Under the pieces are notes generated by a model, which was not told where the DNA came from, did no database searches, and saw nothing but the letters and a program-made list of their open reading frames with translations. This document shows, in pieces, positions 3,289 to 29,152 of a stretch of 64,000 nt of DNA. The stretch lies in assembly GCA_963749345.1 (NCBI GenBank), contig CAVVMO010000004.1:3053358-3117357 (forward strand), read 5' to 3'. A program made the translations under genes and the position numbers. Every line of letters starts with the position of its first letter. The stretch's first letter is position 1. This DNA is from an uncultured Bacteroidales bacterium. Its GTDB lineage: Bacteria > Bacteroidota > Bacteroidia > Bacteroidales > JAADJA01.

Positions 3289-4633
3289 CTTTCTTTACAA
3301 TAAGCTGGCCTGTTTGATATCCGGTTACTCTTATGGCTATGTCTTTATCAATAAATCCTGCTTCTGCCGTAGCATCGTAAATGTCACCATCAACCCGTAC
3401 CTTACCGGCTGGCCTCAAGATGGTATGGGCAACTCCGGTTTTCCCAATCATGTTTTTATACTGTGAATCGGACGATGTAAATCCCTCATTTGATTCCTGT
3501 ATCGAATCCAAAGCAAGGTGGCCAAAGGTGGTCGACGTTAAGAGTTTTCTTCCAAAATAAAATGAAAGGACGATGGCAAGAAATCCTGAAATCACCACGA
3601 TAAAGAATGATTTTATCAGGCCGGTCAGCATAACTCCTTCAAAGTTGAATCCCATATTGTTGGTCATGCTCAATGTAAGTCCGGCAACAACAAAGATGAT
3701 CCCTAAAATACCGGGTATTCCAAACCCGGGTATGACAAAAATCTCAACGGCCAGTAAAATTACACCGACAATAAAAAGGATGATTTCCCAGTGTTCAGCC
3801 AGGCCTTCGATATAAAGCGGTGCAAAATAAAGCAAAGCAGCCAATACTGCGGCTGCTGAAGGAAACCCGATGCCGGGTGTCTGCATTTCGAAATAGATTC
3901 CACCGATGATGATCATAATTAAAATACCACTCACAAACGGGTTGATAAGGAACCGGATGATCTTATCCGAAACGGTTAATCTTTGTTCAATAATTTTGTA
4001 ATCTTTGATTTTGGCAATGTCAAGTACTTCCTCCACCGATTCGGCAATGCCTTCGCAATATTTGTATTTTAAAGCTTCATTGGCAGTAAGTGTCAGCACA
4101 TTTCCTGTATCGTTTATTCCTTCAATATAGATTCGGGGATCGACCATAGCCTGGGCGATATCAGGGTCTCTTCCCGATGATTCAGCTGTTGAACGCATCA
4201 TCGACCGCATATACGACTGGTATTTATCGGGTAAGGGTTTCCCGGTCTGATCGACTACCGTGGCTGCCCCAATATTTGCTCCTGACCGCATGTAAATCGA
4301 ATCACAGGCAATTGAAATCAATGCCCCGGCGGAGGCTGCATTGTTATCAATAAAAACCCAGACAGGAATATCAGAATTTAATATTGCCGTCCTGATGGAA
4401 TCGGCTGCATCCAGCAAGCCACCATAGGTGTTCATATGAATGAGGATAAGGTCGGTTTTAAGGTCCTTTGCCTCCTTAAATGCTTTTTTGGTCTTATGCC
4501 AGACAGGGGGTGCTATTTCTTCCTTGATATCAAATTTGTAAATAATGAATGTTGTATCGTCTGCATGAATAATTTGCGCAGATAAAGAAATCAAGTTGAG
4601 GATAAAGAACAATCTTAAGAAACTTTTTAGCAT
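3248..4633 (-). CDS. NfeD-family membrane-bound ClpP-class serine protease
   Basis: Signal peptide, ClpP-like N-domain ([26 protein letters not shown]), multi-TM middle, and a C-terminal NfeD OB-fold ([28 protein letters not shown]). Confidence 0.75.
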
Positions 4634-4719
4634 AAGATTAATGGTATTTTAGTGTTGTTTTCATTAATGACTTTATTATTATAATTCTTTTGTGTCTATA
4701 AAATGCTTATTACCTTTAT

Positions 4720-5517
4720 TTACTTAAAATGAGATTTAATCACATCTAACAACTCATCTTTAATATAGGGATTGGTGGCCACTAACTCACCACCAAAAAT
4801 GTAATCGTCAGAACCTGAGAAGTCACTTACTTTTCCTCCCGCTTCCTGCACAATTAAAACACCGGCAGCAACATCCCAGGGGCTTAACCCATACTCATAA
4901 AAGCCTTCAAACCTGCCACAGGCGGTATAGGCCAGATCAACTGCCGCAGAACCGAGCCTCCGCAACCCATGGGTGTTTTCCATCAGGTGCTTGAACAAAA
5001 CTATGTACTCGTCTAATCTTCCATAATCATAATAAGGGAAACCTGTTGCGAGGAGGCTATCCTTTAGACTTTTTATTTGCGAAACCTCTATCTGGTGGCC
5101 ATTCAGAAATGCGCCGCCATTTTTCCAGGAATAAAAACATTCCTGGAGGTTGGGTTCATAAATCACCCCTATAACCACATTATTCTGTTGCATCAACGCT
5201 ATGCTGATGGAGTACAGGGGAACATGATGAATGAAATTGGTTGTCCCATCGAGTGGATCGATTACCCAATTGTAATTGTCCTTTTTCTTTAGTTCCTGGT
5301 TTTCCTCTGCTATAAACCCAGCTTCGGGTAGCAGCAAATGCAACTCTCTAACCAACCTTTGCTCGGTGGTTTTGTCGACATACGTCACAAAATTATTCAG
5401 CCCTTTGGTTTGTATATCCGATTCCTTAATTTTTCTGATTTCTGTTTTAAGAAAATTTCCGGTAATCCTTGATACATTCACCACCTGCTTTGTCAACAAT
5501 TCAAGATTTAACATCAT
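4720..5517 (-). CDS. Inositol monophosphatase family protein (SuhB-like)
   Basis: WVIDPLDGTTNF and WDVAAGVLIVQEAGG motifs. 265 aa. Confidence 0.85.
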   Translation of the reverse strand: MMLNLELLTKQVVNVSRITGNFLKTEIRKIKESDIQTKGLNNFVTYVDKTTEQRLVRELHLLLPEAGFIAEENQELKKKDNYNWVIDPLDGTTNFIHHVPLYSISIALMQQNNVVIGVIYEPNLQECFYSWKNGGAFLNGHQIEVSQIKSLKDSLLATGFPYYDYGRLDEYIVLFKHLMENTHGLRRLGSAAVDLAYTACGRFEGFYEYGLSPWDVAAGVLIVQEAGGKVSDFSGSDDYIFGGELVATNPYIKDELLDVIKSHFK

Positions 5518-15420: not shown

Positions 15421-16365
15421 ATGAAAAAATTAGCCGTTGTGGCTTTCGGTGGGAATGCCCTTTTACAGTCAAATCAAAAAGGGACAATAGATGAGCAGGA
15501 GAAGAATGCTTTTGAAGCCAGTAAAAATCTGTTGAATCTGTTAAAGAATAACTACAACATAGTTATCACACATGGAAATGGACCGCAGGTTGGTAACATT
15601 TTATTATCCGACCAGGCAGGCAGCAAAATGCATGGATTACCGCCAATGCCTCTCGATATTTGCGTGGCTTATTCTCAGGGTTTTATTGGTTACATTATTG
15701 AGCAGCAACTGAGAAATGTGCTGGAAGCAAACGACATGGACCGGGATATCATGACCATCATTACCCAGGTGCTGGTGAACAAAGATGATCCTGCGTTTGA
15801 AAAACCGACAAAACCGATCGGACCTTATTATTCAAAGGAGGAGGCTCAGAAAATCATGAAAGAGTCCGGTTCTGTTTTTGTCGAAGATAAGAAAAGGGGT
15901 GGCTGGAGAAAAGTAGTTGCATCCCCAAGGCCCCTGGTAATAAGCAATAAAAAGTCTATTGAACAGCTTGCCCGAAATGGGCAGATTGTAATTGCAGTGG
16001 GAGGCGGCGGAATTCCGGCATTCTATGTTGAGCCCAACAAATTGCAGGGTATTGATGCAGTAATAGATAAAGATCTTGCATCATCCTTACTTGCAAAACA
16101 GATCGGAGCGGATAAATTATTTATCCTTACCGATGTAGCTAAAGTTTGCTTAAATTACAATACTCCTCAGGAAAAGGTGATTGACCGAATGACGATTGCT
16201 ACAGCAAAAAAGTACCTTATTGAAGGTCAATTTGCAGAAGGAAGCATGGCACCAAAAATACGTGCGGCAATTGATTTCGTTGAAAATACAGGCAAAGACG
16301 CAATCATCACCAAAACCACTCTGCTTGGTGTGGATGATGGTGGTACCAGAATAGTAATGGTCTAA
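15421..16365 (+). CDS. arcC: Carbamate kinase
   Basis: KLAVVAFGGNALL, ITHGNGPQVG and VAVGGGGIP motifs. 314 aa. Confidence 0.9.
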   Translation: MKKLAVVAFGGNALLQSNQKGTIDEQEKNAFEASKNLLNLLKNNYNIVITHGNGPQVGNILLSDQAGSKMHGLPPMPLDICVAYSQGFIGYIIEQQLRNVLEANDMDRDIMTIITQVLVNKDDPAFEKPTKPIGPYYSKEEAQKIMKESGSVFVEDKKRGGWRKVVASPRPLVISNKKSIEQLARNGQIVIAVGGGGIPAFYVEPNKLQGIDAVIDKDLASSLLAKQIGADKLFILTDVAKVCLNYNTPQEKVIDRMTIATAKKYLIEGQFAEGSMAPKIRAAIDFVENTGKDAIITKTTLLGVDDGGTRIVMV

Positions 16366-16414
16366 TTATAATTAAATCTAAAATCGTAAATCATTTATCT
16401 AAATCATAAATCGT

Positions 16415-17416
16415 ATGGGTTATAATCTCAGAAACAGACACTTTTTAAAATTATTGGATTTCACTCCGGAAGAAATTAAGTTCTTGCTCAGTTTATCGGC
16501 AGACCTTAAAAAAGCTAAGTATTCAGGCACCGAGCAACCCAGGCTTAAGGGAAAGAATATCGCATTGATCTTTGAAAAAGCTTCAACCCGCACCAGGTGT
16601 GCATTTGAAGTGGCTGCCTTCGATCAGGGTGCACAGGTTACTTATCTGGGTCCTTCAGGTTCACAAATTGGCCAGAAGGAAACCATGAAAGATACAGCAC
16701 GTGTTCTTGGCAGGATGTATGACGGCATAGAGTATCGTGGTTACGGTCAGGAAATTGTTGAGGAACTTGCTCAATATGCGGGTGTTCCCGTCTGGAATGG
16801 TCTCACCAATGAATTTCATCCCACTCAAATTCTGGCTGATTTTCTTACCATGACAGAACATTCAGATAAACCGCTGAATCAAATTTCATTTGCATATTGT
16901 GGTGATGCCAGGAACAATATGGGGAATTCACTGATGGTTGGCGCTGCCAAGATGGGTATGGATTACAGGGCTGTAGCTCCAAAATCCGGGCATCCCGACA
17001 AAGCCCTGGTGAAAAAATGCCTTGACATGGCCAAAACAACAGGCACGAAGATCACCATTACTGAGAATGTTGCTGAGGGTGTTAAAGGAGTAGATTTCAT
17101 TTATACCGATGTTTGGCTTTCGATGGGGGAAGACGCATCACTCTGGGCAAAAAGGATCAAGGAGATGCTTCCTTACCAGGTAAATGCTAAAATGCTTAAA
17201 AAGACAGGAAATCCAAAAGTAAAATTTCTGCATTGCCTGCCTGCATTCCACAACAGGGATACAAAAGTGGGGGAGGAGATTTATCAGAAATATGGCATTG
17301 ACGGCATGGAAGTAACTGAAGAAGTTTTCGAATCAGAAGCATCTATCGTCTTTGACCAGGCTGAAAACAGGTTACATACCATAAAGGCTGTTATGGTTGC
17401 AACGCTTGGAAGCTAA
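16415..17416 (+). CDS. argF: Ornithine carbamoyltransferase
   Basis: [13 protein letters not shown] (STRTR), [14 protein letters not shown] (ornithine-binding DxxxSMG) and HCLPAFH. The SMG motif argues for OTC rather than putrescine carbamoyltransferase. Confidence 0.9.
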
Positions 17417-17447
17417 TAAGAGATCAAAACTTTTAAAGCGAAAATAC

Positions 17448-17831
17448 ATGCGTGTTACAGGAGAGAATAAACTCAGAAACCTTATTGTGGTTGGGGATAA
17501 AATCCTGATCAAACCTGTGAAGCATGATTCCAAATCCAAGGGCGGATTATTGCTTCCTCCGGGTTATAAGGAGAAGGAAGATGTGCAGTCGGGGTATGTG
17601 ATCAAAGTTGGACCCGGATATCCGATCCCTATACCTGCAGACGATGCTGATGAGCCCTGGAAAAAGTCTGATGAAAAGATTAAGTACATTCCACTACAGG
17701 CAAAAGAGGGCGATTTGGCGATTTTTCTTCAGAAAGGAGCTGTTGAGGTGATTTATGAGAACGAAAAGTATTATATCGTTCCTCAGTATTCTATTCTATT
17801 GCTTGAAAGGGATGATTCGCTTTTTGAATAA
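17448..17831 (+). CDS. GroES/Cpn10-family-like small protein
   Basis: I start at the ATG at 17448 rather than the longer track ORF. VGDKILIKP...KGGLLLP...GYVIKVGPG...AKEGDLAIF follows the GroES strand pattern with an insert. Confidence 0.5.
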   Translation: MRVTGENKLRNLIVVGDKILIKPVKHDSKSKGGLLLPPGYKEKEDVQSGYVIKVGPGYPIPIPADDADEPWKKSDEKIKYIPLQAKEGDLAIFLQKGAVEVIYENEKYYIVPQYSILLLERDDSLFE

Positions 17832-18246: not shown

Positions 18247-19146
18247 TTAGCTAAATAATTTCAATCCCCAGCTAATACAATTCAGCACCCCATCGTGCTT
18301 TGCAATGGCATTTGAAGGAACCGGAACCACATTTTCCCGGCCAAACAAATTCTGAAAATCAGAAATTGCCTTTTCATCGAGTTTTTTAGTATTAAAAGTT
18401 GGAAGGAAGATCAGTTTCCCGATTTGAAGGTAATTAATGTAGAAATTTCCATCGTAATCTTTATGCGGAATAACAGCTTTTATTGTTAATCCACTTGACT
18501 TTATTGTTTCCCGGAACAAACGGAGCTTTCGGGAAAAATGCAAAGGGTACAAGCGATTTGGTTTATCATCGTTGATCAGCACTTCTTTTTCGCTGTAAAA
18601 TCTCACCATGCCATCTGCATGGCCATATGTATCAGCAGGCAAACGGGGAATGATGACAACATGTTTGACCCGAAAGTCCTCTTTGATTTGATTGATGATA
18701 ATTTGCTTTTGCTCCGGAGTCACCTTATCAAGTTTTGAAATCGGTAGTCCAAGGTTTTCAGTAAATACTTTTTCAGTCAGTATCACTTTATCTTTTGATG
18801 TAATTACATTCCCGCCATCAAGGATTAATTTACTTGGTTTGATTTTAAATCCCAATTCTTTGATCCCGTTTTGCGCTATCACCTGGTCAACATCACTCCT
18901 GCTTTTCTCATGTTCTTTTGTCCTGAGGTAATCTGGATCGTAACTATATTGCAGCAAGGTTTTCTTATCGATTTGAATGGGCATATAATCCCGGCACCAG
19001 ATATCCTTGGTTCCGTTTAACAACCTTGGCTCTATGCATTTATCCCTGAGTGCTTTTTCGAGCCGTTTCCAAAAAGGTTTGAATTCCTTCTTTTCTGATA
19101 GCTGGCTGCTGAAAAAGACGGTGTTAGTTTCGCTATTTGTTATCAT
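18247..19146 (-). CDS. Agmatine deiminase / PAD_porph-family (guanidino-group-modifying enzyme fold) protein, short form
   Basis: DIWCRDYMPIQ, LILDGGNV, GHADGMVRF and the C-terminal catalytic-Cys context GVLNCISWG. 299 aa. Confidence 0.55.
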   Translation of the reverse strand: MITNSETNTVFFSSQLSEKKEFKPFWKRLEKALRDKCIEPRLLNGTKDIWCRDYMPIQIDKKTLLQYSYDPDYLRTKEHEKSRSDVDQVIAQNGIKELGFKIKPSKLILDGGNVITSKDKVILTEKVFTENLGLPISKLDKVTPEQKQIIINQIKEDFRVKHVVIIPRLPADTYGHADGMVRFYSEKEVLINDDKPNRLYPLHFSRKLRLFRETIKSSGLTIKAVIPHKDYDGNFYINYLQIGKLIFLPTFNTKKLDEKAISDFQNLFGRENVVPVPSNAIAKHDGVLNCISWGLKLFS

Positions 19147-19738
19147 TGAGTCGATCCTGCCAGATTTGTTTTATAGATTGACCTATTTTTTTGAACTCTT
19201 CAAAGGTGAATTCATCGGTCTTCGCATTATTGCACCAGTAGCAAGCCATTACTGTATTTTCAGGAGTGTATTCAAAATTGGAATCCAGCCGGTCAACTTC
19301 AAGTGTCCATCCACGGTAGTTTTTTTTACGCAATTTATGAATTGCACCCAACTCTTCAATTTGCTTTGTTGTAATTCCGCAATAAGCACAAGTATCGGAA
19401 TCAGTTAATGCTTTGAATTTTTCTTCTGGGAAAATTTTACCGAACATTACTTGTACATAATGTCGCTGAAGCTCGCCTATCAAGGTTTTGTTTTCATTAT
19501 TCCATTGTACAATGGCTTTCTCAATTTCAGCGATTGGATAATTTCTGATTGGATAATCTGGTAATTCCTGCCAGTATTCAGTTGTGTAAAGGTTAACGAG
19601 TTCTTGCGCAATCTTATAATTTTCAAAATCGGATAGGTTTATTTGATGTATCAAATTGCTGCTGATCTTGTCGAAAAGGTAAAGCACCAGTTTTGTCCTA
19701 AAGCTATCGTTAGCTTTGATTCTGTACTTTGAATTCAT
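19133..19738 (-). CDS. HNH-like zinc-finger nuclease-fold protein with a non-canonical active-site motif
   Basis: C-terminal CAYCG...WTLEVDRLDSN...ACYWCNNAKTD, i.e. CxxC...D-R (where D-H is expected)...N...CxxC-N-x-x-K. I prefer the ATG at 19738; the track ORF starts at a TTG at 19798. Its stop overlaps the downstream PAD-like gene by 14 nt. Confidence 0.5.
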   Translation of the reverse strand: MNSKYRIKANDSFRTKLVLYLFDKISSNLIHQINLSDFENYKIAQELVNLYTTEYWQELPDYPIRNYPIAEIEKAIVQWNNENKTLIGELQRHYVQVMFGKIFPEEKFKALTDSDTCAYCGITTKQIEELGAIHKLRKKNYRGWTLEVDRLDSNFEYTPENTVMACYWCNNAKTDEFTFEEFKKIGQSIKQIWQDRLNDNK

Positions 19739-19868
19739 ATGGGAAAATTTTGATCCAAATGTATTAATATTCCCAGTATATTTACGGCGATTTATCAAGC
19801 ATGATATTCTTTCAGCCTTTCAGAAAATTAATTCTTAGGGGTTATAGTAACTGTAAATAGACATAATT

Positions 19869-20465
19869 GTGAATATCAAGGAGATTACCGATAATGCTTT
19901 ACTTCTTGCTGTTAAGAGATCAAAGAGGAAGAAAATTGCAGGGAAAATTCCAAATGGGGATTTTCAAAAACTGCATGCACTCCGGGCACGTGAATGGGTG
20001 GAGGCTTTGGCCGAAACTTTCAGAAAATACTATGATGAATTGAAAGAACCTAATGTCCGTGTGTTTTCGAAGTATAGCAACTATAACCGCAAAGATTTCG
20101 GACTTAACGAGCTCCTTTTCGATATTTCCGTTGTTAAAACTGCAACCATCCAGTCTCCCCGGCATAAAGAATTGACCTACATCGAAAAAGCCCTCTGGAT
20201 CGTGGAATCAGAAATGGCAAATGATACCCGGCAATTGGTACTTGATTTCAGCAAGCTTGTGATGGGCGATGCGGAGAATAAGTTGTTTGTGGGACCACTG
20301 AGTGAAGAAATTTTTAATTTTATACCACAGCTATGTGCTGTTGCCCGGAACTGCAACGGATTAGTTCATCTGTGTCTTGTTCCTCATCCTGAAAAATGGG
20401 AAAAAGATGAAACTAAGTTAAAGATGTGGTTTTTTGAATCTAACAAGTTTATTGAAATAAATTAA
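19869..20465 (+). CDS. Hypothetical protein, first gene of the five-gene operon
   Basis: 198-aa ORF with a GTG start, 16 nt upstream of the helicase gene. No motif recognised. LLFDISVV...WIVESEMAND could be a PD-(D/E)xK-like core, but that is speculative. Confidence 0.45.
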   Translation: MNIKEITDNALLLAVKRSKRKKIAGKIPNGDFQKLHALRAREWVEALAETFRKYYDELKEPNVRVFSKYSNYNRKDFGLNELLFDISVVKTATIQSPRHKELTYIEKALWIVESEMANDTRQLVLDFSKLVMGDAENKLFVGPLSEEIFNFIPQLCAVARNCNGLVHLCLVPHPEKWEKDETKLKMWFFESNKFIEIN

Positions 20466-20481
20466 TAAGAAACAATTAGGA

Positions 20482-23400
20482 ATGCCCAAAATTTACGACA
20501 ATATAGAAAACCACTTGACGCAGGGTCTTAATGAAACTTTAGAAGTATCGCAAAGAACGGATTTTTGCGTAGGCTATTTTAATTTAAGGGGTTGGAAAGA
20601 AATTGCAGATAAAATTGATTCTTTATCAGGATCAATCATAACAGAGGGTAAAGATGATATTCATCGAATTTGCAGACTTTTAGTAGGAATGCAAAAACTG
20701 CCTGTGGATATGCTCCGCGATTATTTTAAAACAGAAGAAGATCATCTGCTGGATCAAAACGAAGCAGTAAAACTCAAAAAAAGATTAGCACAGGAATTTA
20801 AAGATCAGCTTACTATTGGGATGCCTTCAGATGCTGATGAATTGGCTTTACGCAAATTGAGTCAGCAAATGAAAGATAAAAAAGTTGCTGTAAAATTACA
20901 TTTACGGTATCCCTTACATGCAAAACTTTATTTGGCTTTCAGCAATGATAAAAGAGTACCTGTAGTAGGTTTTTTAGGCAGTAGCAACCTCACTTTAGCC
21001 GGACTTGCAAAACAAGGGGAATTGAATATTGATGTATTGGAACAGGATGCGGCAAATAAACTATCAATATGGTTTGATGACAGATGGAATGACCGATGGT
21101 GCATTGATATAACCAATGAGTTAATTGAGATAATTGATAATAGTTGGGCAGCGGACCGCTTGGTATCACCTTATCATATTTACTTAAAAATGGCTTATCA
21201 TCTTTCACAGGAAGCCAGGGCCGGTTTAAATGAATTTAAAATACCTGTTGTTTTCAGACAAGAACTTTTACCATTTCAACAAGCAGCAGTTTTAATTGCA
21301 GCAAAAAAACTTAATAGTCGCGAAGGAGTCTTTATTGGTGATGTTGTGGGTTTGGGTAAAACAATTACAGCATGTGCATTGGCGAAAATATTTGAAGAAG
21401 ATTTTTTCTATTCTACACTTGTCATTTGCCCCCCGAACATAAAGCAAATGTGGAATGGATATATCAACAGGTACGATTTAAAGTCGAATGTAATTTCCAT
21501 TGGTGAAGTGCAAAGAAAACTTCCAGACTTGCGACGATATAAGCTTGTTATTATTGATGAAAGTCATAATTTACGAAATGATCAGGGAAGTCGATATCGT
21601 TCAATAAAAGCCTATCTTGAAGAAAATGACAGTAAGGTTATTTTACTTTCAGCAACTCCTTATAATAAATCCTATCTGGACTTATCAAATCAACTTCGCC
21701 TTTTTATATCTGATGATAAGGATTTAGGCATTAGCCCTGAGAACTACATTAATAATATTGGAGGTCAAGTGCAGTTTTCAGCTTTGCACACCGAAACTTT
21801 CATTCGTAGTATTAAAGCATTTGAAAAAAGTAATTATGCTGATGATTGGCGTGAATTAATGCGGCTTTATCTTGTACGTCGTACCCGAAGTTTCATTAAG
21901 GATAATTATGCTGAATTCGATCCTGTTAAAAACAGGAAATATTTAACTTTTTCTGATGGGACTCGTTCTTATTTCCCTGATAGAATACCTAGGAAAGTTG
22001 AATTTGATTTTGACCCAAATGACCCTAAAGACCAATATGCAAAATTGTATTCACAAAATGTTGTCGATACCATTAACGGTCTTGATTTGCCGCGCTATGG
22101 TTTAGGAAACTATATTGTTCAGAACCCTGTTATAAAACCTACTAAAGAGGAAGAAGTAATCATTGCCAATTTATCCCGTGCCGGTAAACGCTTAATGGGT
22201 TTTTGCAGAACTAACCTTTTCAAACGGCTTGAAAGTAGCGGTTTTTCTTTTTTAATTTCGCTAAGCAGACACATATTACGGAACTATGTTTTTTTCTATG
22301 CTATTCAGAATAAATTACCAGTCCCAATTGGAAAAAACATATCACAAAACCTTGATGATTTCCTTGATGATGAGGATACAGATAATAATGGAGAAAATGA
22401 AAATATAATCAGTTTTATTCTTGATGAAAAGCAATACTTGAAAAATGCTTCTAAGGTTTACGATCTTTATTCAAGTAGTAAATTAAAAAAGCAATTTGAT
22501 TGGATCAGAAGTGAATTTTTTTCTACCGCCTTGCTCAAACAGCTTTCAAATGACAGTAATGAAATCACAAAGATTTTAAAGATTGGTCAGGATTGGAATT
22601 GTGATGAAGACAGAAAATTGAATGCATTGTATAAATTACTTAGCGAAAAGCATAAAAATGAAAAAGTCCTGATTTTTACTCAGTTTGCCGATACTGCAAT
22701 TTATATTGCTGATCATTTAAAATCAAGAAAACTTGAAAATCTTGAACACGTCACTGGAAATAGTGAAAACCCAACTGCATCAGCGTATAGATTTAGTCCG
22801 ATAAGCAATAAATTTCCTTCAACCAAAGATGATATCCGGATTTTGGTATCGACTGATGTATTAAGTGAAGGTCAGAATTTACAGGATGCCCATATCATTT
22901 TAAATTATGATTTACCCTGGGCTATTATCAGGCTGATTCAGAGAGCCGGACGTGTTGACCGTATCGGGCAAAAAGCAGAAGGAATATTCTGTTATTCATT
23001 TTTGCCGGAGGACGGAATTGAACAAATTATTAATTTGCGGCATAGACTCACAAGCCGGATTCGTCAAAATGCTGAAGTGGTGGGCTCCGATGAAGTTTTC
23101 TTTGATGGTGATCCAATTAACATAGAGGATCTTTATAACGAGAAAGCCGGAATTTTAGATGAAGAAGAAGACAGCGAAGTTGATTTATCTTCCTATGCTT
23201 TTCAAATCTGGAAAAATGCAACAGACGAAACACATGAATTGAAAAAAACAATTCCTAATCTCCCTAACGTAATTTACGCTACAAAACAAAACTTGTTAAG
23301 TCCGGAAAAAGAAGGAGTCGTGGTTTATACACGAACTTATGATGAAAATGATATTCTTGCATGGGTTGATACCAATGGCAATATTATTACACAATCGCAG

Positions 23401-23838
23401 TTGACAATTTTGAAAGCTGCTGCTTGTAATTCTGATGTTGACCCGTGCTATAAAATTTTTAATCATCATGAGCTTGTTAAAAAAGGCATTGAATATATTC
23501 GTGATGATGAAAAAAACACCGGAGGATCACTGGGGAAAAGAACCGGGGCGAAATACAGGGTGTATATGCGGCTCGACAGGTATTGCAAAGAATTTGAAAA
23601 TACATTATTTGTGAACGATGCCTTAAAAAAGGCAATTGATGATATTTACAAATATCCTTTTAAAGAATTTGCCAGGGAAACATTGAATCGGCAATTAAAA
23701 GCCGGTATTTCTGACGAAGATCTTGTCAACCTAGTCGTTTCATTGCGGGAAGAAGATAAACTTTGTATTGTAAATCTGGACGAAATGCCCAACAAGGAAC
23801 CTCAGATTATTTGCTCAATGGGATTAAAAAATAAATAA
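20482..23838 (+). CDS. PLD-family nuclease domain fused to an SNF2-family helicase
   Basis: N-terminus has LHAKLYLAF...GFLGSSNLT (HxK...GSxN PLD motif). SNF2 motifs: VVGLGKTITA (I), VIIDESHNLRN (II), LLSATPYNK (III), STDVLSEGQNLQDA (V), IQRAGRVDRIGQ (VI). Confidence 0.85.
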   Translation: MPKIYDNIENHLTQGLNETLEVSQRTDFCVGYFNLRGWKEIADKIDSLSGSIITEGKDDIHRICRLLVGMQKLPVDMLRDYFKTEEDHLLDQNEAVKLKKRLAQEFKDQLTIGMPSDADELALRKLSQQMKDKKVAVKLHLRYPLHAKLYLAFSNDKRVPVVGFLGSSNLTLAGLAKQGELNIDVLEQDAANKLSIWFDDRWNDRWCIDITNELIEIIDNSWAADRLVSPYHIYLKMAYHLSQEARAGLNEFKIPVVFRQELLPFQQAAVLIAAKKLNSREGVFIGDVVGLGKTITACALAKIFEEDFFYSTLVICPPNIKQMWNGYINRYDLKSNVISIGEVQRKLPDLRRYKLVIIDESHNLRNDQGSRYRSIKAYLEENDSKVILLSATPYNKSYLDLSNQLRLFISDDKDLGISPENYINNIGGQVQFSALHTETFIRSIKAFEKSNYADDWRELMRLYLVRRTRSFIKDNYAEFDPVKNRKYLTFSDGTRSYFPDRIPRKVEFDFDPNDPKDQYAKLYSQNVVDTINGLDLPRYGLGNYIVQNPVIKPTKEEEVIIANLSRAGKRLMGFCRTNLFKRLESSGFSFLISLSRHILRNYVFFYAIQNKLPVPIGKNISQNLDDFLDDEDTDNNGENENIISFILDEKQYLKNASKVYDLYSSSKLKKQFDWIRSEFFSTALLKQLSNDSNEITKILKIGQDWNCDEDRKLNALYKLLSEKHKNEKVLIFTQFADTAIYIADHLKSRKLENLEHVTGNSENPTASAYRFSPISNKFPSTKDDIRILVSTDVLSEGQNLQDAHIILNYDLPWAIIRLIQRAGRVDRIGQKAEGIFCYSFLPEDGIEQIINLRHRLTSRIRQNAEVVGSDEVFFDGDPINIEDLYNEKAGILDEEEDSEVDLSSYAFQIWKNATDETHELKKTIPNLPNVIYATKQNLLSPEKEGVVVYTRTYDENDILAWVDTNGNIITQSQLTILKAAACNSDVDPCYKIFNHHELVKKGIEYIRDDEKNTGGSLGKRTGAKYRVYMRLDRYCKEFENTLFVNDALKKAIDDIYKYPFKEFARETLNRQLKAGISDEDLVNLVVSLREEDKLCIVNLDEMPNKEPQIICSMGLKNK

Positions 23839-23841
23839 ATT

Positions 23842-26800
23842 ATGTTGAACATAGATACTACCAGAAAGCATTTACAGGCTTTTGATTTTAAAACACTTTT
23901 TATTGAGGAAATTGGTTGGAACAAACCCACCAATAAAAACGCAGTTGCTTTTAAAACAATAGAATGTAACTATTATCGTACGGCTATTTCTGAACTATCA
24001 GGGGCTGTGGTTTACGAAATTACCTCCTCAGAAGGGAAAATACCAGATGCAAAAGAACGAGCCTCTATTAGCAACCTAATTCAGAAAATTAATTTTGAAC
24101 ATATTCTCATATTTGTTGATGCCCAAAGAACACAATCTATTTGGAGATGGATAAAAAAGCAGGATAAGAAATCGTTGCCCAGAGAGCATTATTTTTCCAG
24201 AGGTCAATCCGGCGATTTATTCATTTCAAAATTGGCAGGTCTTTTTGTCGATATCAGCGAAATTGAAAATGATATCACCATAACCGATGTCGCAAAAAAA
24301 ATTCAGATTGCATTAGACATTGAAAGGGTTACAAAAAAGTTTTACCGCGACTATCAAACTCAGTTTATCTCCTTTCTTGACTTGATAGAAGGAATTGATA
24401 ACGAAGCCGACAAGCATTGGTATGCTTCAGTTATTTTAAACCGTTTAATGTTCATTTATTTCCTTCAAAAGAAAATGTTTTTAGATAATGGTAATGCAAA
24501 TTATCTGTCCGATAAATTACAGCACTCCAAAGACCAATTTGGTAAAAATAAATTTTACGACACCTTTTTGCATAAGCTATTTTTTGAAGGTTTTGCAAAA
24601 GCCGAAACACAAAGAGATGCAACTACAAACAAACTTATTGGAAAAATTAAATATTTGAATGGCGGCTTATTTTTGGTACACAAGATAGAAAAGAAATATC
24701 AAGGCAAAATCAAAATTAAAGATAATGCATTTGAAAATCTTTTTAGTTTGTTTGATAGTTATAGCTGGACATTGGACGACACACCGGGAGGTAAAGACAA
24801 TGAGATTAATCCTGATGTATTGGGTTATATTTTTGAAAAGTATATCAACCAGAAAGCATTTGGGGCTTATTACACACGTACCGAAATAACCGAATACCTC
24901 TGCGAGCAAACTGTTTACAAACTTATATTAGACGAAGTAAACGAACCTGAAATTGACCCTGATTTATTGAAAAAAGCAGGTCTTGATAAATATGGAAAGG
25001 CAAAATATTATATAAGCATTGCCGAACTCCTGTTAAATTTAGATGCTGCCACTTGCAAAAAACTAATTACCGGTGAAAATGCAGTATTGCCCAACTTGAG
25101 TTTGCTCGACCCTGCTTGTGGTTCAGGAGCTTTTTTAGTGGCGGCAATGAAAACACTTATAAATGTGTATTCAGCTATTCTTGGGAAAATAGAATTTCTG
25201 GGTGATAAAAAATTGATGGAGTGGAAAAAAGAAATTGAGAAAAACCACCCCAGCATAAACTATTACATAAAAAAGCAGATTATTACCAACAATCTGTATG
25301 GTGTAGATATAATGGAAGAAGCTACTGAAATAGCTAAATTACGTTTGTTTCTAGCATTGGTATCTAGTGCCCAGACCGTTGACCAATTGGAACCCTTACC
25401 AAATATTGATTTTAATATTATGAGTGGTAATTCCCTGATTGGTTTGATGCGTGTTGACGAAAGCGAATATAATAAACACCAAAAGGAAGATTTGTTTAAG
25501 AAAAGTTATCGCGAATTGGTAAACCAACGTGAAGCTGCAATCCGGGCATATAAGTCTTTTGAAAACTCGAACGAAAATGTTCAAGTTAAGAAAGAAAGTA
25601 TTGAACGTATGGAAACCGAAGCGAATGAAATTTTAAATATAATGCTCGGCCATGAGTTTAACAATTTAGGCATTAAATACGAGCAAATAACTTGGGATGA
25701 TAAAAAAAACAAAGAAGGCAAATCCATAAAACGCAAAATAAATCTTGAAGATATAAAAGCTCTTGAACCTTTTCACTGGGGCTATGAATTCTCAGAAATT
25801 TTCAGAAAGAAAGATGGTTTTGATGCAATCATTACAAATCCGCCTTGGGAAATATTTAAACCTCAAGATAAAGAATTTTTTGCTCCTTATTCTAACACGA
25901 TTAAAAAAAATATTCAATCAATAAAAGAATTTGAAAAAGAAAAAGTTGAACTGCTAAAGAATGAAAATATAAGAAAATTGTATTACAAGTATCTTAGCAA
26001 CTATCCACATCTAAGCCAATACTTTAGAAGTTCGCATCAATTCAAAAATCAAATTTCTATTGTCAACGGTAAAAAAGCAGGTTCTGATATAAATCTTTAC
26101 AAACTCTTTGTTGAACAATGTTACAATCTTATAAAGAAAAAGGGTTACTGCGGGATTGTCATACCAAGCGGTATATACACTGACTTGGGTACAAAGCAAC
26201 TCAGAGTATTGCTCCTAAATCATTCTGAAATACTTAATCTTATTAGTTTATCAAATGAAAGAAATTTGTTTGAAGGTGTAATGCACAATTTCAAATTTTG
26301 TTTGCTAACGTATAAAAAAGATAAACCGAAAGATTACTTTAAAGCTTCCTTTAGAATTTATGTTCATGAATCTGTTAGTCCTCAAGAGTTGGATAGTTTT
26401 CTTGAAAGTGATGAATTCAAATTAAAGATTCCGATTAAAATTGTGAAAGAATTTGCACCTGAATCTCTTTCAATAATGGAATTCAAAGAAGAAATTGATT
26501 TAACTATAGCAAATAAACTTATTGCTTTTCCTATGCTTGGTGAAATTGTTCCTGATTCATTCAAACTTTCACTAAATAGAGAATTTGACATGACAGGAGA
26601 TAGCAAATTATTTCAAACTACACCTAATAAGGGAAGTTTAGTTTTATACGAAGGTAAAATGATTCATCAGTTCACGCATCAGTTTAGTGAAGCACAATAC
26701 TGGGTAAATGAAAAAGATGCGCGTAAATCAATTATAGGTAAAAACGGAACCGATAATGGGCAGAAACTAGAATATCAAGAATATAGAATTGGAACAAGGG

Positions 26801-27345
26801 CAGTTGGGGGCAGTGCAAATGAGAGAGGTTTAATTGGAACAATTCTTCCAAAAAATATTTTTTGCGGAAATTCAATACTCGTAAATACAAGTAGAGATGA
26901 TAATGATTACTTGGAAAACAAAAATAAACTTCTGCTTTTAGGATTTTTAAATAGTTATCCCATTGATTATTGCATACGGCAAATGGTTGCTACTAACATC
27001 AATATGTTTTATATTTACCAATTACATATTCCACGATTAAAACTCAAAGATAAATGGTATCAAGCCATAGTGGAAAGGGTTGCACAATTAATATGCACCA
27101 CCAGTGAGTTTTCAGAGTTATGGGAAGAAGTAATGAAAAGTAAATGGTGCGAAAAAGTTGCCGCCACCCAAGAATATGAACGCAATAAACTTAGGGCAGA
27201 ACTGGATGGTATCATTGCCCATATTTACGGATTAACTGAAGAAGAATTTTCATATATTCTTAGTACCTTTCCTATTGTGCCACAACCGCAAAAAGTGGCC
27301 TCGCAAAATGCTTACAGGGATGTTTTAAATGGATTAATAAAATAA
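23842..27345 (+). CDS. Large Eco57I/type IIG-like N6-adenine DNA methyltransferase with C-terminal specificity region
   Basis: LLDPACGSGAFLVAAM (motif I), AIITNPPWEIFKP (NPPW motif IV), and the C-terminal ...IYGLTEEEFSYIL tail common in this family. 1167 aa. Starts 3 nt after the helicase stop. Confidence 0.85.
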   Translation: MLNIDTTRKHLQAFDFKTLFIEEIGWNKPTNKNAVAFKTIECNYYRTAISELSGAVVYEITSSEGKIPDAKERASISNLIQKINFEHILIFVDAQRTQSIWRWIKKQDKKSLPREHYFSRGQSGDLFISKLAGLFVDISEIENDITITDVAKKIQIALDIERVTKKFYRDYQTQFISFLDLIEGIDNEADKHWYASVILNRLMFIYFLQKKMFLDNGNANYLSDKLQHSKDQFGKNKFYDTFLHKLFFEGFAKAETQRDATTNKLIGKIKYLNGGLFLVHKIEKKYQGKIKIKDNAFENLFSLFDSYSWTLDDTPGGKDNEINPDVLGYIFEKYINQKAFGAYYTRTEITEYLCEQTVYKLILDEVNEPEIDPDLLKKAGLDKYGKAKYYISIAELLLNLDAATCKKLITGENAVLPNLSLLDPACGSGAFLVAAMKTLINVYSAILGKIEFLGDKKLMEWKKEIEKNHPSINYYIKKQIITNNLYGVDIMEEATEIAKLRLFLALVSSAQTVDQLEPLPNIDFNIMSGNSLIGLMRVDESEYNKHQKEDLFKKSYRELVNQREAAIRAYKSFENSNENVQVKKESIERMETEANEILNIMLGHEFNNLGIKYEQITWDDKKNKEGKSIKRKINLEDIKALEPFHWGYEFSEIFRKKDGFDAIITNPPWEIFKPQDKEFFAPYSNTIKKNIQSIKEFEKEKVELLKNENIRKLYYKYLSNYPHLSQYFRSSHQFKNQISIVNGKKAGSDINLYKLFVEQCYNLIKKKGYCGIVIPSGIYTDLGTKQLRVLLLNHSEILNLISLSNERNLFEGVMHNFKFCLLTYKKDKPKDYFKASFRIYVHESVSPQELDSFLESDEFKLKIPIKIVKEFAPESLSIMEFKEEIDLTIANKLIAFPMLGEIVPDSFKLSLNREFDMTGDSKLFQTTPNKGSLVLYEGKMIHQFTHQFSEAQYWVNEKDARKSIIGKNGTDNGQKLEYQEYRIGTRAVGGSANERGLIGTILPKNIFCGNSILVNTSRDDNDYLENKNKLLLLGFLNSYPIDYCIRQMVATNINMFYIYQLHIPRLKLKDKWYQAIVERVAQLICTTSEFSELWEEVMKSKWCEKVAATQEYERNKLRAELDGIIAHIYGLTEEEFSYILSTFPIVPQPQKVASQNAYRDVLNGLIK

Positions 27346-27352
27346 ATAGTTT

Positions 27353-28552
27353 ATGATAACAAATATTCATATTAAGAATTTCAAGGCCATAAAAGATACA
27401 GGAAATTTAAAACTTAATCCAATTAGCTGCTTTATTGGTTACAACGGCTCTGGGAAAAGTAGTTTGCTGGAAGCGCTGTTGACTTTCAAAGAAATGACAA
27501 CTGAAAATCTTGATAAGGCACTAGACCGTTGGAAAGGGTTTGAAAACATTCAGTACAAAGGTGTAAGCAGAAGTAAGGTAATTCATAAAAAGTTTCTTTC
27601 AGATGCTGCTGTTGAAATTTTCAATCAACCTATTTCTTTCAAAATAAAATCAACCTCAAAAAAAGAAAAAAAAGGAACAAGAAAAAACTACATAGCCGAA
27701 GCTTCTCTTACAAAATTATCGAATGGTGAAAAGATAATTTTTTTAGAAGAAAGTTTTACTTACAAAGCTGAACGCGATTTTGTTTATAATCGTGACTGTG
27801 ATGGTCAATTATATTATAGCGATAAAAACAAAGCAGCATATTCAGATGACAGTAAACATTTTAAACTGGCAATGAATAAAAGTTTATTCAGTGATCAAAA
27901 TTTGCCACATGAAATAGCACAATGGCAATTTTTGCGAATGAACCCCGATGTTATGGGTGAACCATTCCCTCAAAAAAGGACCTCTGGTTTCTTACCATTA
28001 AACATTGATGGTTCCAATGTTGCAGAATATTTATTGAGTATTAAGGAAACAAGTTTGCCTGCTTATGAAAGTATTCTAAACACTATGGTTTCAACTGTGT
28101 TGCCTTATGCAAGTGATTTACAGTCAGAACTTACTTCATCTGTTGACCGTAAAATATTTTTAAATTTAACAGAGAAAAACTACAAAGTTCCCGGTTGGTT
28201 ACTTTCCACAGGTACTTTAAGAATAGTTGCATTGCTGGCGGTGTTACGTCATCCGCAACCTGCACCGGTTGTTGTAATTGAGGAATTGGAAAATGGACTT
28301 GACCCCCGGACTATCAATTTAGTTGTAAATGAAATTAGACTATTTACAAAAAAGACGGGCTCACAAGTAATATTTACAACGCATTCACCTTATCTGCTTG
28401 ACCTGATGAATTTGAAAGAAATAGTTTTTGTAGAAAAAGTTGATGGGAATGTTAAATTCTCAAAGCCTTCTGATAACGAAGATTTAGCAATATGGGCAGA
28501 AAAATTTACTCCCGGCAAGTTATATACAATGAGTCGTTTAAATAGCAGATAA
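27353..28552 (+). CDS. ABC/AAA_21-type ATPase (OLD/AbiL/PARIS-class ATPase architecture)
   Basis: Walker A GYNGSGKSSLLEAL, signature-like LSTGTLR, Walker B VVVIEELENGLDP, H-loop FTTHSPYLL. Confidence 0.75.
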   Translation: MITNIHIKNFKAIKDTGNLKLNPISCFIGYNGSGKSSLLEALLTFKEMTTENLDKALDRWKGFENIQYKGVSRSKVIHKKFLSDAAVEIFNQPISFKIKSTSKKEKKGTRKNYIAEASLTKLSNGEKIIFLEESFTYKAERDFVYNRDCDGQLYYSDKNKAAYSDDSKHFKLAMNKSLFSDQNLPHEIAQWQFLRMNPDVMGEPFPQKRTSGFLPLNIDGSNVAEYLLSIKETSLPAYESILNTMVSTVLPYASDLQSELTSSVDRKIFLNLTEKNYKVPGWLLSTGTLRIVALLAVLRHPQPAPVVVIEELENGLDPRTINLVVNEIRLFTKKTGSQVIFTTHSPYLLDLMNLKEIVFVEKVDGNVKFSKPSDNEDLAIWAEKFTPGKLYTMSRLNSR

Positions 28553-28555
28553 TTT

Positions 28556-29152
28556 ATGAAATACGGATTTATTTTTGAATGCCATTTAGATGGTCCTGAC
28601 TTCAAAGTAGTGAAACATATTGTTGAAAATTGGGTGAATCAGAAAATTCAATTTGAGCCTGTTACTTTAGGTGATAAAGGGTCACTTCTTGAACAATGTA
28701 CTGATAGTGTAGAAATGCTGTTGAGAACAAAATGCGATAAGGTTTTTATTGTTTGGGATTTAATGCCAAAATATGCCAACTGTAATTGCATAGTTGAAGA
28801 AAGAAATTTAATCAGGCAACAACTAATTGATAAAAATATTCCTCTTGTCAATGTTGAATTTATTGGCATTGTCCATGAATTGGAAAGTTGGTTAATTGCT
28901 AACGTATCAGCGATTGAACGAGTCTTATCAACGGTAGCTCATCCTATTAACATTGCAAATATTCGCTATCCTGACAGGGATAGAAATCCGAAAGGGAAAT
29001 TGAGAAAAATATTTTTACAAGAAAGAGGATTTGACTACAATGATTTAGATTATGCATTAAGAATAATTCAAAATGTCCAAAGACCGAAAGATTTGAAGAG
29101 GAGTGTTTCGTTTAAAAGGTTTTATCTTAAATTAACTGGTACACAATTATAA
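28556..29152 (+). CDS. DUF4276-like (Toprim-like) small protein partnered with the ATPase
   Basis: Starts 3 nt after the ATPase stop. YGFIFECHLDG (acidic E near the N-terminus), VFIVWDLMP, and ELESWLIAN resemble my recollection of the DUF4276 pattern. Not verified by HMM. Confidence 0.45.
   Translation: MKYGFIFECHLDGPDFKVVKHIVENWVNQKIQFEPVTLGDKGSLLEQCTDSVEMLLRTKCDKVFIVWDLMPKYANCNCIVEERNLIRQQLIDKNIPLVNVEFIGIVHELESWLIANVSAIERVLSTVAHPINIANIRYPDRDRNPKGKLRKIFLQERGFDYNDLDYALRIIQNVQRPKDLKRSVSFKRFYLKLTGTQL

Follow-up and report, generated by a model that had tools for sequence, protein, structure and literature searches.

The window examined here is a 64,000-nucleotide stretch of contig CAVVMO010000004.1 from an uncultured Bacteroidales bacterium (assembly GCA_963749345.1), and the element under study is a pair of small, overlapping genes on its minus strand, which encode an HNH endonuclease-like protein and a short protein of the agmatine-deiminase fold (Table 1). 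Comparison with related loci shows, at the genomic level, that this pair represents an accessory module that is widespread and self-contained and in which a short deiminase is co-translated with, or in some loci fused to, an interchangeable DNA enzyme; the evidence points to an undescribed two-enzyme system that is probably anti-phage. The HNH open reading frame (ORF) spans 19133..19798 in full and would give 221 amino acids (aa) from a TTG at 19798; we prefer the in-frame ATG at 19738, yielding 201 aa, because this start agrees with homologs such as L063 and P0172-P0290. An earlier note on this DNA, made from the sequence alone, had described a 14-nt overlap between the two genes, and the coordinates bear this out, with the HNH stop codon at 19133-19135 and the deiminase ATG at 19144-19146. 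Its description of the pair as divergent from a plus-strand defense operon across ~130 bp likewise holds (130 bp lie between 19738 and the GTG at 19869), and the motifs CAYCG, LEVDRLDS and CYWCNNAKTD that it read in the HNH ORF are all found as given. The overlap is consistent with translational coupling of the two genes. Consensus promoter scanning around the pair gave only weak matches (12 versus 7.3 +/- 2.9 expected), and the promoter and terminator scan of this region returned nothing usefully over background.

To define the partners of the deiminase, one genome per species was scanned, which returned 566 deiminase relatives, and the best 80 loci were examined as a first set; partner families were obtained by clustering the ORF directly upstream, followed by a wider clustering of neighbors. 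An independent second set comprised 80 metagenome loci, in which a same-strand partner was counted within 1.2 kb. Same-strand partners of three families were present in 61 of the 80 loci of the first set, and four of the other 19 lack upstream DNA. Partner family A was recovered in 31 loci and in one more that also has B; family B in 17 loci, in L003 (where it had been missed by gene calling) and in two mixed loci; and family C in 10 loci and in one that also has B. The second set yielded partners in 63 of 80 loci (A in 28, B in 18 and C in 17), or in 59 of the 70 loci with at least 500 bp of upstream sequence. Recurrent adjacency of the short deiminase to an HNH-like gene, which the earlier note had proposed to look for, is thus a real feature of these loci, and adjacency to two glycosylase-fold families is more frequent still.

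Family B is PacI-like HNH, as assigned by a profile match to PacI, and family C belongs to the UDG superfamily: the Pfam UDG profile scores above its cut-off in L053 and L066, and PDB entry 2l3f is matched at E 1.4e-10. By sequence alone, family A gave a Pfam Pur_DNA_glyco match of E 0.005 at best (L035) and noise only in a profile search of the PDB. Its predicted structure, modeled with a predicted local distance difference test (pLDDT) score of 90.9, is of the AAG/MPG fold: the best nine Foldseek matches are all human AAG, and a VIA-align comparison with 48,161 chains placed it on AAG 1ewn with a Z of 12.1 (root-mean-square deviation 3.1 over 142 aligned positions), the next fold reaching a Z of 4.4. 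About two thirds of the partners are base-excision glycosylases of two superfamilies.

The physical coupling seen in the window is a general property of the module. The first set contains 53 partner genes located upstream. Of these, 40 run into the start of the deiminase gene (a 4-nt ATGA being shared in 27 cases), nine lie at 0-20 nt from it and four lie further away; given these counts, the HNH/deiminase overlap in the window is not a chance arrangement. Fused proteins also occur, two joining an AAG-like domain to the deiminase (P0161 and P0168, matched by the family-A profile at E 2e-30 and 9e-14) and one joining a PacI-like HNH domain to it (P0170, E 2.4e-40). The reverse gene order was seen in L004, L045, L049 (Parabacteroides) and L118, where the AAG-like gene is located downstream of the deiminase and not upstream; the deiminases of L045 and L049 are 283-295 aa long, and that of L004 is longer, at 393 aa, with a C-terminal extension. 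A similar C-terminal extension, in the 388-aa form P0036, matched no Pfam family. Small ORFs without a Pfam match recur just downstream of the deiminase in 4-5 loci, and none is present in the window.

Sampling from the side of the partners, in 300 other genomes chosen evenly across the phylum (301 with the source genome), recovered the short deiminase (E <= 1e-30) in five of the 300, or six of the 301. The AAG-like family was found in four of the 300, every copy directly beside a deiminase; in this sample family A is associated with the deiminase exclusively, and for family C the association is facultative. In a FastTree phylogeny of 152 deiminases (118 of them labeled by partner), partner type switches at least 30 times, compared with about 50 switches under shuffled labels. 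Partners are exchanged rapidly: the deiminases of L150 and L144 are 92.9% identical, and one is paired with an HNH protein and the other with a UDG-like protein, while those of L055 (UDG-like) and L069 (AAG-like) are 84% identical. Deiminases that are less than 60% identical share a partner type only as often as expected by chance (about 0.36). The partners are thus interchangeable around a constant deiminase.

The Pfam PAD_porph profile, which has a cut-off of 25 bits, matches the constant component at 86.2 bits (E 3.2e-24) over positions 71-318 of its 321; we term the protein short because the N-terminal part of that profile, its first ~70 positions, is missing. Against the NCBIfam aguA equivalog TIGR03380 it scores 34.6 bits, the cut-off being 381.8, and residues 236-292 alone match. 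The structure prediction and fold search suggested in the earlier note returned the agmatine-deiminase fold: an AlphaFold (AF2) model built from 20 relatives (pLDDT 90.2) adopts the five-bladed beta/alpha propeller of agmatine deiminases, and its best Foldseek matches are the agmatine deiminases 1xkn, 6b10, 2cmu and 1zbr (E ~1e-15, TMq 0.66-0.72), followed by Porphyromonas PAD and DDAH. Profile-to-PDB comparison likewise reached PDB chains of this fold at E 1.7e-19. Catalytic positions, mapped through alignment to 3hvm and 1xkn, fall in the motifs D-I-W-C-R-D53, D172...G-H176-A-D178 and N-C290, which, by the residue roles of the H. pylori enzyme, hold the pair of Asp residues that bind guanidinium, together with the His and the Cys nucleophile. 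The Cys/His/Asp triad, whose state the note had asked about, is intact: D53, D/E172 and H176 are each conserved in 152 of 152 relatives and C290 in 149 of 152, with gaps in the other three. Since these residues are retained in 149-152 of 152 relatives, the protein appears from its conservation to be an enzyme under selection for catalysis and not a scaffold, and it is predicted to be catalytically active.

Relative to AguA and Porphyromonas PAD (PF04371; 1xkn, 6b10, 3hvm, 2jer and 4ytb), the window deiminase has the fold and catalytic motifs in common, and differs in being ~45-90 residues shorter at the N-terminus and in carrying Asn, not His, before the catalytic Cys. It also falls far under the aguA equivalog cut-off, and, unlike AguA, the loci examined never adjoin polyamine genes and are associated with DNA glycosylase or nuclease genes instead. 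No PADLOC-DB 2.0.0 family was matched at E <= 0.01 and no match was found in PHROGs, and all clusters obtained from the ESM Atlas bore the name 'agmatine deiminase family'. Within PF04371, PPAD is the only characterized peptidyl-arginine deiminase according to one preprint (bioRxiv 10.1101/2020.07.16.207027). The lasso-peptide deiminases of Harris et al. were considered as a further precedent in this family and dropped, as they belong to PF03068.

The HNH protein falls below the Pfam HNH (PF01844) cut-off (18.5 bits versus 21.4), and the canonical D-H dyad is absent, with D-R in its place. The earlier note, which had read the Arg in the motif, called the protein degenerate. That description is contradicted by its homologs and by PacI. 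A profile of 16 family members (A4) matches PacI 3ldy at E 3.1e-14, aligning profile positions 67-165 with PacI 44-139 and placing the V-D-R of the window protein on the V-D-R of PacI. PacI itself is described in two papers as lacking the catalytic His and using an omega-loop tyrosine instead, and as carrying Cys4 zinc sites (PMC5714182, PMC4081073). Across 120 full-length HNH homologs, the four Cys, R150, Y157, N161 and N170 are conserved in 120 of 120 and D149 in 118 of 120, with Y157 located in the loop between the D-R and N161; the family thereby shows the residue set of the PacI type, namely no catalytic His, a loop Tyr, Asp/Asn metal ligands and two CxxC pairs. We assign the protein, on these sequence features, as PacI-type (His-Me finger group 20) endonuclease-like. 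Because D-R is typical of the active PacI and is invariant in the window HNH family, the Arg appears to be a hallmark of an active nuclease type and not a sign of decay.

The likeness to PacI (3ldy/3m7k) comprises two CxxC zinc motifs around a beta-beta-alpha-metal core, the D-R, the loop Tyr and the Asn metal ligand. It extends only over the ~100-residue catalytic half, the window protein having another N-terminal region of ~100 aa, and the window protein is obligately coupled to a deiminase, a coupling not reported for PacI, which is described as lacking a cognate methyltransferase (PMC5714182). Weaker relationships were seen with the PHROG endonuclease VII family (E 4e-10) and, in PADLOC-DB, with PtuA/PtuB (E 2e-4 to 3e-3).

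Restriction and defense genes are frequent around the module, an adjacency that the earlier note had proposed to survey for the deiminase. By manual reading and with no control set, 31 of the 80 loci have restriction-modification, defense, toxin-antitoxin or mobile-element neighbors within two ORFs, including GmrSD, type I restriction-modification subunits, Mrr, Gabija-like AAA_15/UvrD pairs, AbiV, AbiEii, SIR2-STALD, REase-ARP, PIN and RES toxins, and integrases or transposases. The 240 flanking ORFs scanned with Pfam are a mix of housekeeping and defense-type genes, and no further gene family recurs in more than five of the 80 loci. On viral or prophage contigs, the AAG-like partner was present in five of 17 loci, and in two viral contigs, L176 (2988-9507) and L180 (3171-6882), a type I restriction-modification operon has the deiminase gene inserted between its hsdR and hsdM genes.

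The distribution of the module is patchy, and copies of it decay to pseudogenes. Using the window deiminase as the query, the short deiminase gene was found in five of 24 genomes of the same genus. The source genome holds a second copy on contig 5 (~4598-5491; L084/L194), which is 78% identical and broken by five stop codons in two frames, and no partner gene was detectable in the ~1.3 kb upstream of it. The copies in two congeners are truncated and lack a partner, as is true of all close relatives with visible context (G000 contig 5, G001, G012 and L001), which are truncated or broken. The metagenome scan did not return the relatives of 60-84% identity, and the closest full-length ones (P0003-P0009) fall outside the context counts.

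Our preferred explanation, which we hold tentatively, is that the deiminase modifies a nucleobase or modified base and that the partner then excises the product or cuts at it. Under this scheme, the deiminase would hydrolytically deiminate an amidine- or guanidine-type group on the base, and the partner would destroy the invading DNA at that site. Candidate targets would be the canonical bases, whether in DNA or in the pool of nucleotides, and hypermodified bases of phages, for instance a 7-deazaguanine of the archaeosine type; in the version found in the window, the PacI-type nuclease would do the cutting. We favor such sequential attack on a base because the partners are limited to two glycosylase superfamilies and one base-extruding nuclease type and do not span the usual range of effectors. 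Rapid partner swapping among deiminases that are 84-93% identical argues for a common substrate over partner-specific recognition, and the chemistry of the superfamily, the conversion of C=N to C=O with release of ammonia, would formally amount to base deamination. Deaminated bases are a common substrate class of both the AAG and UDG superfamilies.

The scheme has a counterpart in the eukaryotic antiviral pair of APOBEC3 and UNG2, in which the first enzyme takes an exocyclic amino or imino group off a base and the glycosylase then converts the product into abasic sites. The likeness is a functional analogy only; the deaminase folds are unrelated, that of APOBEC being the zinc-dependent CDA fold and that of the module a Cys-dependent beta/alpha propeller. 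Brig1 is reportedly a stand-alone anti-phage glycosylase. Lone glycosylases have been shown to defend against phages with modified bases (Getz et al., bioRxiv 10.1101/2025.10.29.685425), and in published work on such enzymes the bases concerned are modified guanines, cytosines and thymidines. The small glycosylases Brig1/Brig2 (UDG-like) and Dag1/Dag2 (helix-hairpin-helix) that act against modified phage DNA resemble the module in that partner families A and C are glycosylase folds too; they differ in being single proteins, and the Getz preprint, from which the words 'deiminase', 'AAG' and 'alkyladenine' are absent, names no deiminase partner and does not report the AAG fold as a defense glycosylase. 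The more far-reaching part of our reading is that the deiminase would be the first enzyme of the guanidino-modifying superfamily to act on nucleic-acid bases, at amidine/guanidine groups of the guanine, adenine or cytosine type or on a phage hypermodified base, with its product handed to a dedicated AAG-like or UDG-like glycosylase or PacI-type nuclease, and would thereby provide a bacterial deaminate-then-excise antiviral route of separate origin from APOBEC/UNG; this we regard as unlikely.

Several observations weigh against base deimination. Action on a nucleobase is not known for any enzyme of the guanidino-modifying superfamily, and the two-Asp guanidinium site is kept in the family as it is in arginine or agmatine enzymes. 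UDG-like relatives occur in 28 of the 300 other genomes, none beside a deiminase, and the sole PacI-like HNH gene in the phylum sample outside the source genome stands alone, without a deiminase. Most HNH and UDG-like partners are basic and most deiminases acidic (median isoelectric point (pI) 5.2-5.7), which makes the latter unlike DNA-binding enzymes; the clade of the window is an exception with reversed charges, its deiminases having pI 8.3-9.4 and the 200-aa HNH subfamily a median pI of 6.0. Among the longer relatives, 40 of 49 (P0123-P0160, P0163 and P0165; 556-668 aa) combine an N-terminal deiminase domain with Sel1/TPR repeats, and single proteins are fused to an ADP-ribosylglycohydrolase (P0166) or a PP2C phosphatase (P0167), architectures that suggest protein substrates; a further single fusion carries a metallo-beta-lactamase/RMMBL domain (P0164). 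Finally, three short deiminase relatives on viral contigs, of 24-27% identity (L181 5851-7594, L186 1066-2611 and L187 5234-6906), adjoin a phosphatidylserine-decarboxylase-like gene (phrog_12670), a neighbor that leaves shortness by itself insufficient to exclude a small-molecule substrate.

The main rival to our reading, possible in our view and on the doubtful side, is an enzymatic, type VII-like toxin-antitoxin or abortive-infection module, in which the DNA enzyme would be the toxin and the co-translated deiminase would restrain it, for instance by citrullinating an arginine with which the partner binds DNA, until infection breaks this control. Type VII toxin-antitoxin systems have an enzymatic antitoxin, as in HepT/MntA, and PanA is a promiscuous antitoxin domain; the module resembles these systems in its small overlapping genes, its constant partner combined with many unrelated ones and its patchy occurrence, and its proneness to decay fits as well. 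No antitoxin is known to be a deiminase. The existence of partner-deiminase fusions, an active site suited to guanidinium (and hence to arginine), the precedent of PPAD as the sole characterized peptidyl-arginine deiminase of its family in the preprint cited above, and the fusions to the protein-directed domains Sel1, PP2C and ADP-ribosylglycohydrolase all speak for such restraint. The charge data lean in the same direction: deiminase and HNH or UDG-like partner are mostly of opposite charge, with the signs reversed in the window clade, and their net charges are anticorrelated with a rho of -0.72 in the B pairs (n = 13) and of -0.70 in the C pairs (n = 9), kin among the pairs not being independent, although over all 48 pairs the trend is weak (rho -0.20, p 0.18). 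Recognition of a specific partner arginine is hard to square with deiminases of 84-93% identity serving three unrelated folds, and no invariant arginine was found in the UDG-like family.

A related possibility, which we judge quite unlikely, is that the deiminase serves as an effector or sensor directed at arginines in proteins of the phage or the host, with the DNA enzyme as an independent co-effector. It might, for example, strip away proteins that are rich in arginine and protect DNA, or undo a modification of arginine. Besides the Sel1/TPR, ADP_ribosyl_GH and PP2C fusions, the arginine/agmatine-type active site and the acidic surface of most members would suit this role, and the P0166 fusion keeps alive the proposal of the earlier note that ADP-ribosyl-arginine could be the substrate. 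Such a role leaves unexplained why the partners are almost exclusively glycosylase folds plus one nuclease family and why the AAG-like family is restricted to deiminase neighborhoods.

It is improbable that the enzyme is a true deiminase of agmatine or a similar guanidino-amine that affects DNA attack through a small molecule, whether it depletes agmatine or polyamine that shields DNA or provides amines able to cleave abasic sites. Agmatine deiminases are indeed its closest solved structures, and the pyruvoyl-decarboxylase-like gene beside the phage relatives L181, L186 and L187 would fit; against this stand the aguA score far below its cut-off, the missing first ~70 profile positions and the finding that neither an N-carbamoylputrescine amidase nor a putrescine carbamoyltransferase was detected by Pfam among the 240 flanking ORFs. 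Very improbable is a selfish cassette in which the PacI-like HNH is a homing-endonuclease remnant and the deiminase passive cargo. Patchiness, pseudogene copies, transposase or integrase neighbors at some loci and a GIY-YIG gene beside the phage copy L186 are compatible with it, but the active-site residues are invariant in both proteins and translational coupling has been regenerated with three unrelated partner families. The earlier note had named as a refuting outcome that the HNH-like gene might be a widespread homing-endonuclease remnant occurring by itself. The low prevalence of the family, present in only two of the 301 sampled phylum genomes (the source genome included), contradicts this, although the one copy outside the source genome does stand alone. 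Ordinary arginine or agmatine catabolism with the nearby carbamate kinase and ornithine carbamoyltransferase is hardly credible: the two genes are found at most 2 kb from the pair and score above their NCBIfam cut-offs, but they are convergent with it on the opposite strand beyond a GroES-like ORF and about 400 bp, the carbamoyltransferase is of the ornithine and not the putrescine type (280.1 versus 500 for the latter), GC content drops to 0.36 at the boundary, two longer PAD_porph genes exist elsewhere in the same genome, and none of the 80 related loci holds a homolog of these three neighbors. No carbamoyltransferase or carbamate kinase turned up among the 240 flanking ORFs either. Since no related locus has the carbamoyltransferase or carbamate kinase of the window, a role of the pair in polyamine or arginine catabolism is unlikely, in keeping with the view of the earlier note that the arrangement is not metabolic.

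A literature search that did not extend to subscription journals and preprint supplements found no published description of such coupling between a gene of the deiminase fold and one for a DNA glycosylase or an HNH protein, and the statement of the earlier note that no such pairing has been described stands within that scope; PADLOC 2.0.0 has no model for the deiminase/partner module. A conflict module based on a nuclease or glycosylase is in itself known in kind, and the constant deiminase enzyme is what is unprecedented; a categorically new chemistry is a real possibility. Should the module prove to be a defense or toxin system, a Cys-dependent guanidino/amidino hydrolase would be an enzyme class new to nucleic-acid conflict, and one serving as the constant core that mixes DNA glycosylases with a rare nuclease type. 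PacI-like nucleases, known otherwise from an orphan restriction enzyme, would also gain a biological context, and the AAG fold would be seen in a role that is apparently not repair. The biochemistry would be new in either case, as a nucleobase deiminase or as an antitoxin acting by citrullination. The thousands of ~280-aa 'agmatine deiminase family proteins' in Bacteroidota are probably mis-named.

The features of the window around the pair are collected in Table 1. The divergent operon encodes a PLD-SNF2 helicase, an Eco57I-type methyltransferase, an AAA_21 ATPase and a DUF4276 protein, and is followed by a further multidomain protein. On the other side, no arginine deiminase gene was seen between the carbamate kinase, carbamoyltransferase and GroES-like ORFs. 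GC content is about 0.40-0.42 around the carbamoyltransferase gene and drops to 0.31-0.37 over the interval of 18-33 kb.

Table 1. Features of the window in and around the gene pair, by position; paired scores are given as score versus cut-off.
Feature	Position	Strand	Basis or remark
Carbamate kinase	15421-16365	plus	NCBIfam arcC, 379.5 vs 358.25
Ornithine carbamoyltransferase	16415-17416	plus	OTCase PRK04284, 574.7 vs 515
GroES-like ORF, 144 aa, N-terminal extension	within 15421-17831	plus	
PAD_porph/agmatine-deiminase-fold protein, 299 aa, ATG start	18247..19146	minus	ORF call and Pfam
Gene overlap, 14 nt, HNH stop and deiminase start	19133..19146	minus	Coordinates
PacI-type HNH (His-Me finger) endonuclease-like protein, 201 aa	19133..19738	minus	ORF call and family profile
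Divergent intergenic region, 130 bp, shared with the plus-strand defense operon	19739..19868		
Defense operon	19869-29152	plus	First gene starts with GTG at 19869
GmrSD N-terminal, weak HNH_4 and C-terminal Schlafen/AlbA_2 protein, 714 aa	29764-31908	plus	Pfam; PADLOC HEC-05

Individual loci elsewhere illustrate the range of settings. In L021 (2387-6837) the module directly follows a Gabija-like pair of an AAA_15/AAA_21 ATPase and a UvrD-like helicase and precedes type I restriction-modification genes, and a 389-aa form of the deiminase occupies the same setting in L015 (2504-7170). Among the viral contigs, L176 has a YhcG PD-(D/E)xK nuclease gene after the deiminase, and in L182 the deiminase is situated between the terminase and portal genes. 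The viral contig L179 (1327-4064) encodes a 359-aa deiminase relative after thymidylate-synthase-like and Dam-like/D12-class adenine methyltransferase genes, a neighborhood that resembles, by analogy, the kind seen for phage DNA-modification genes.

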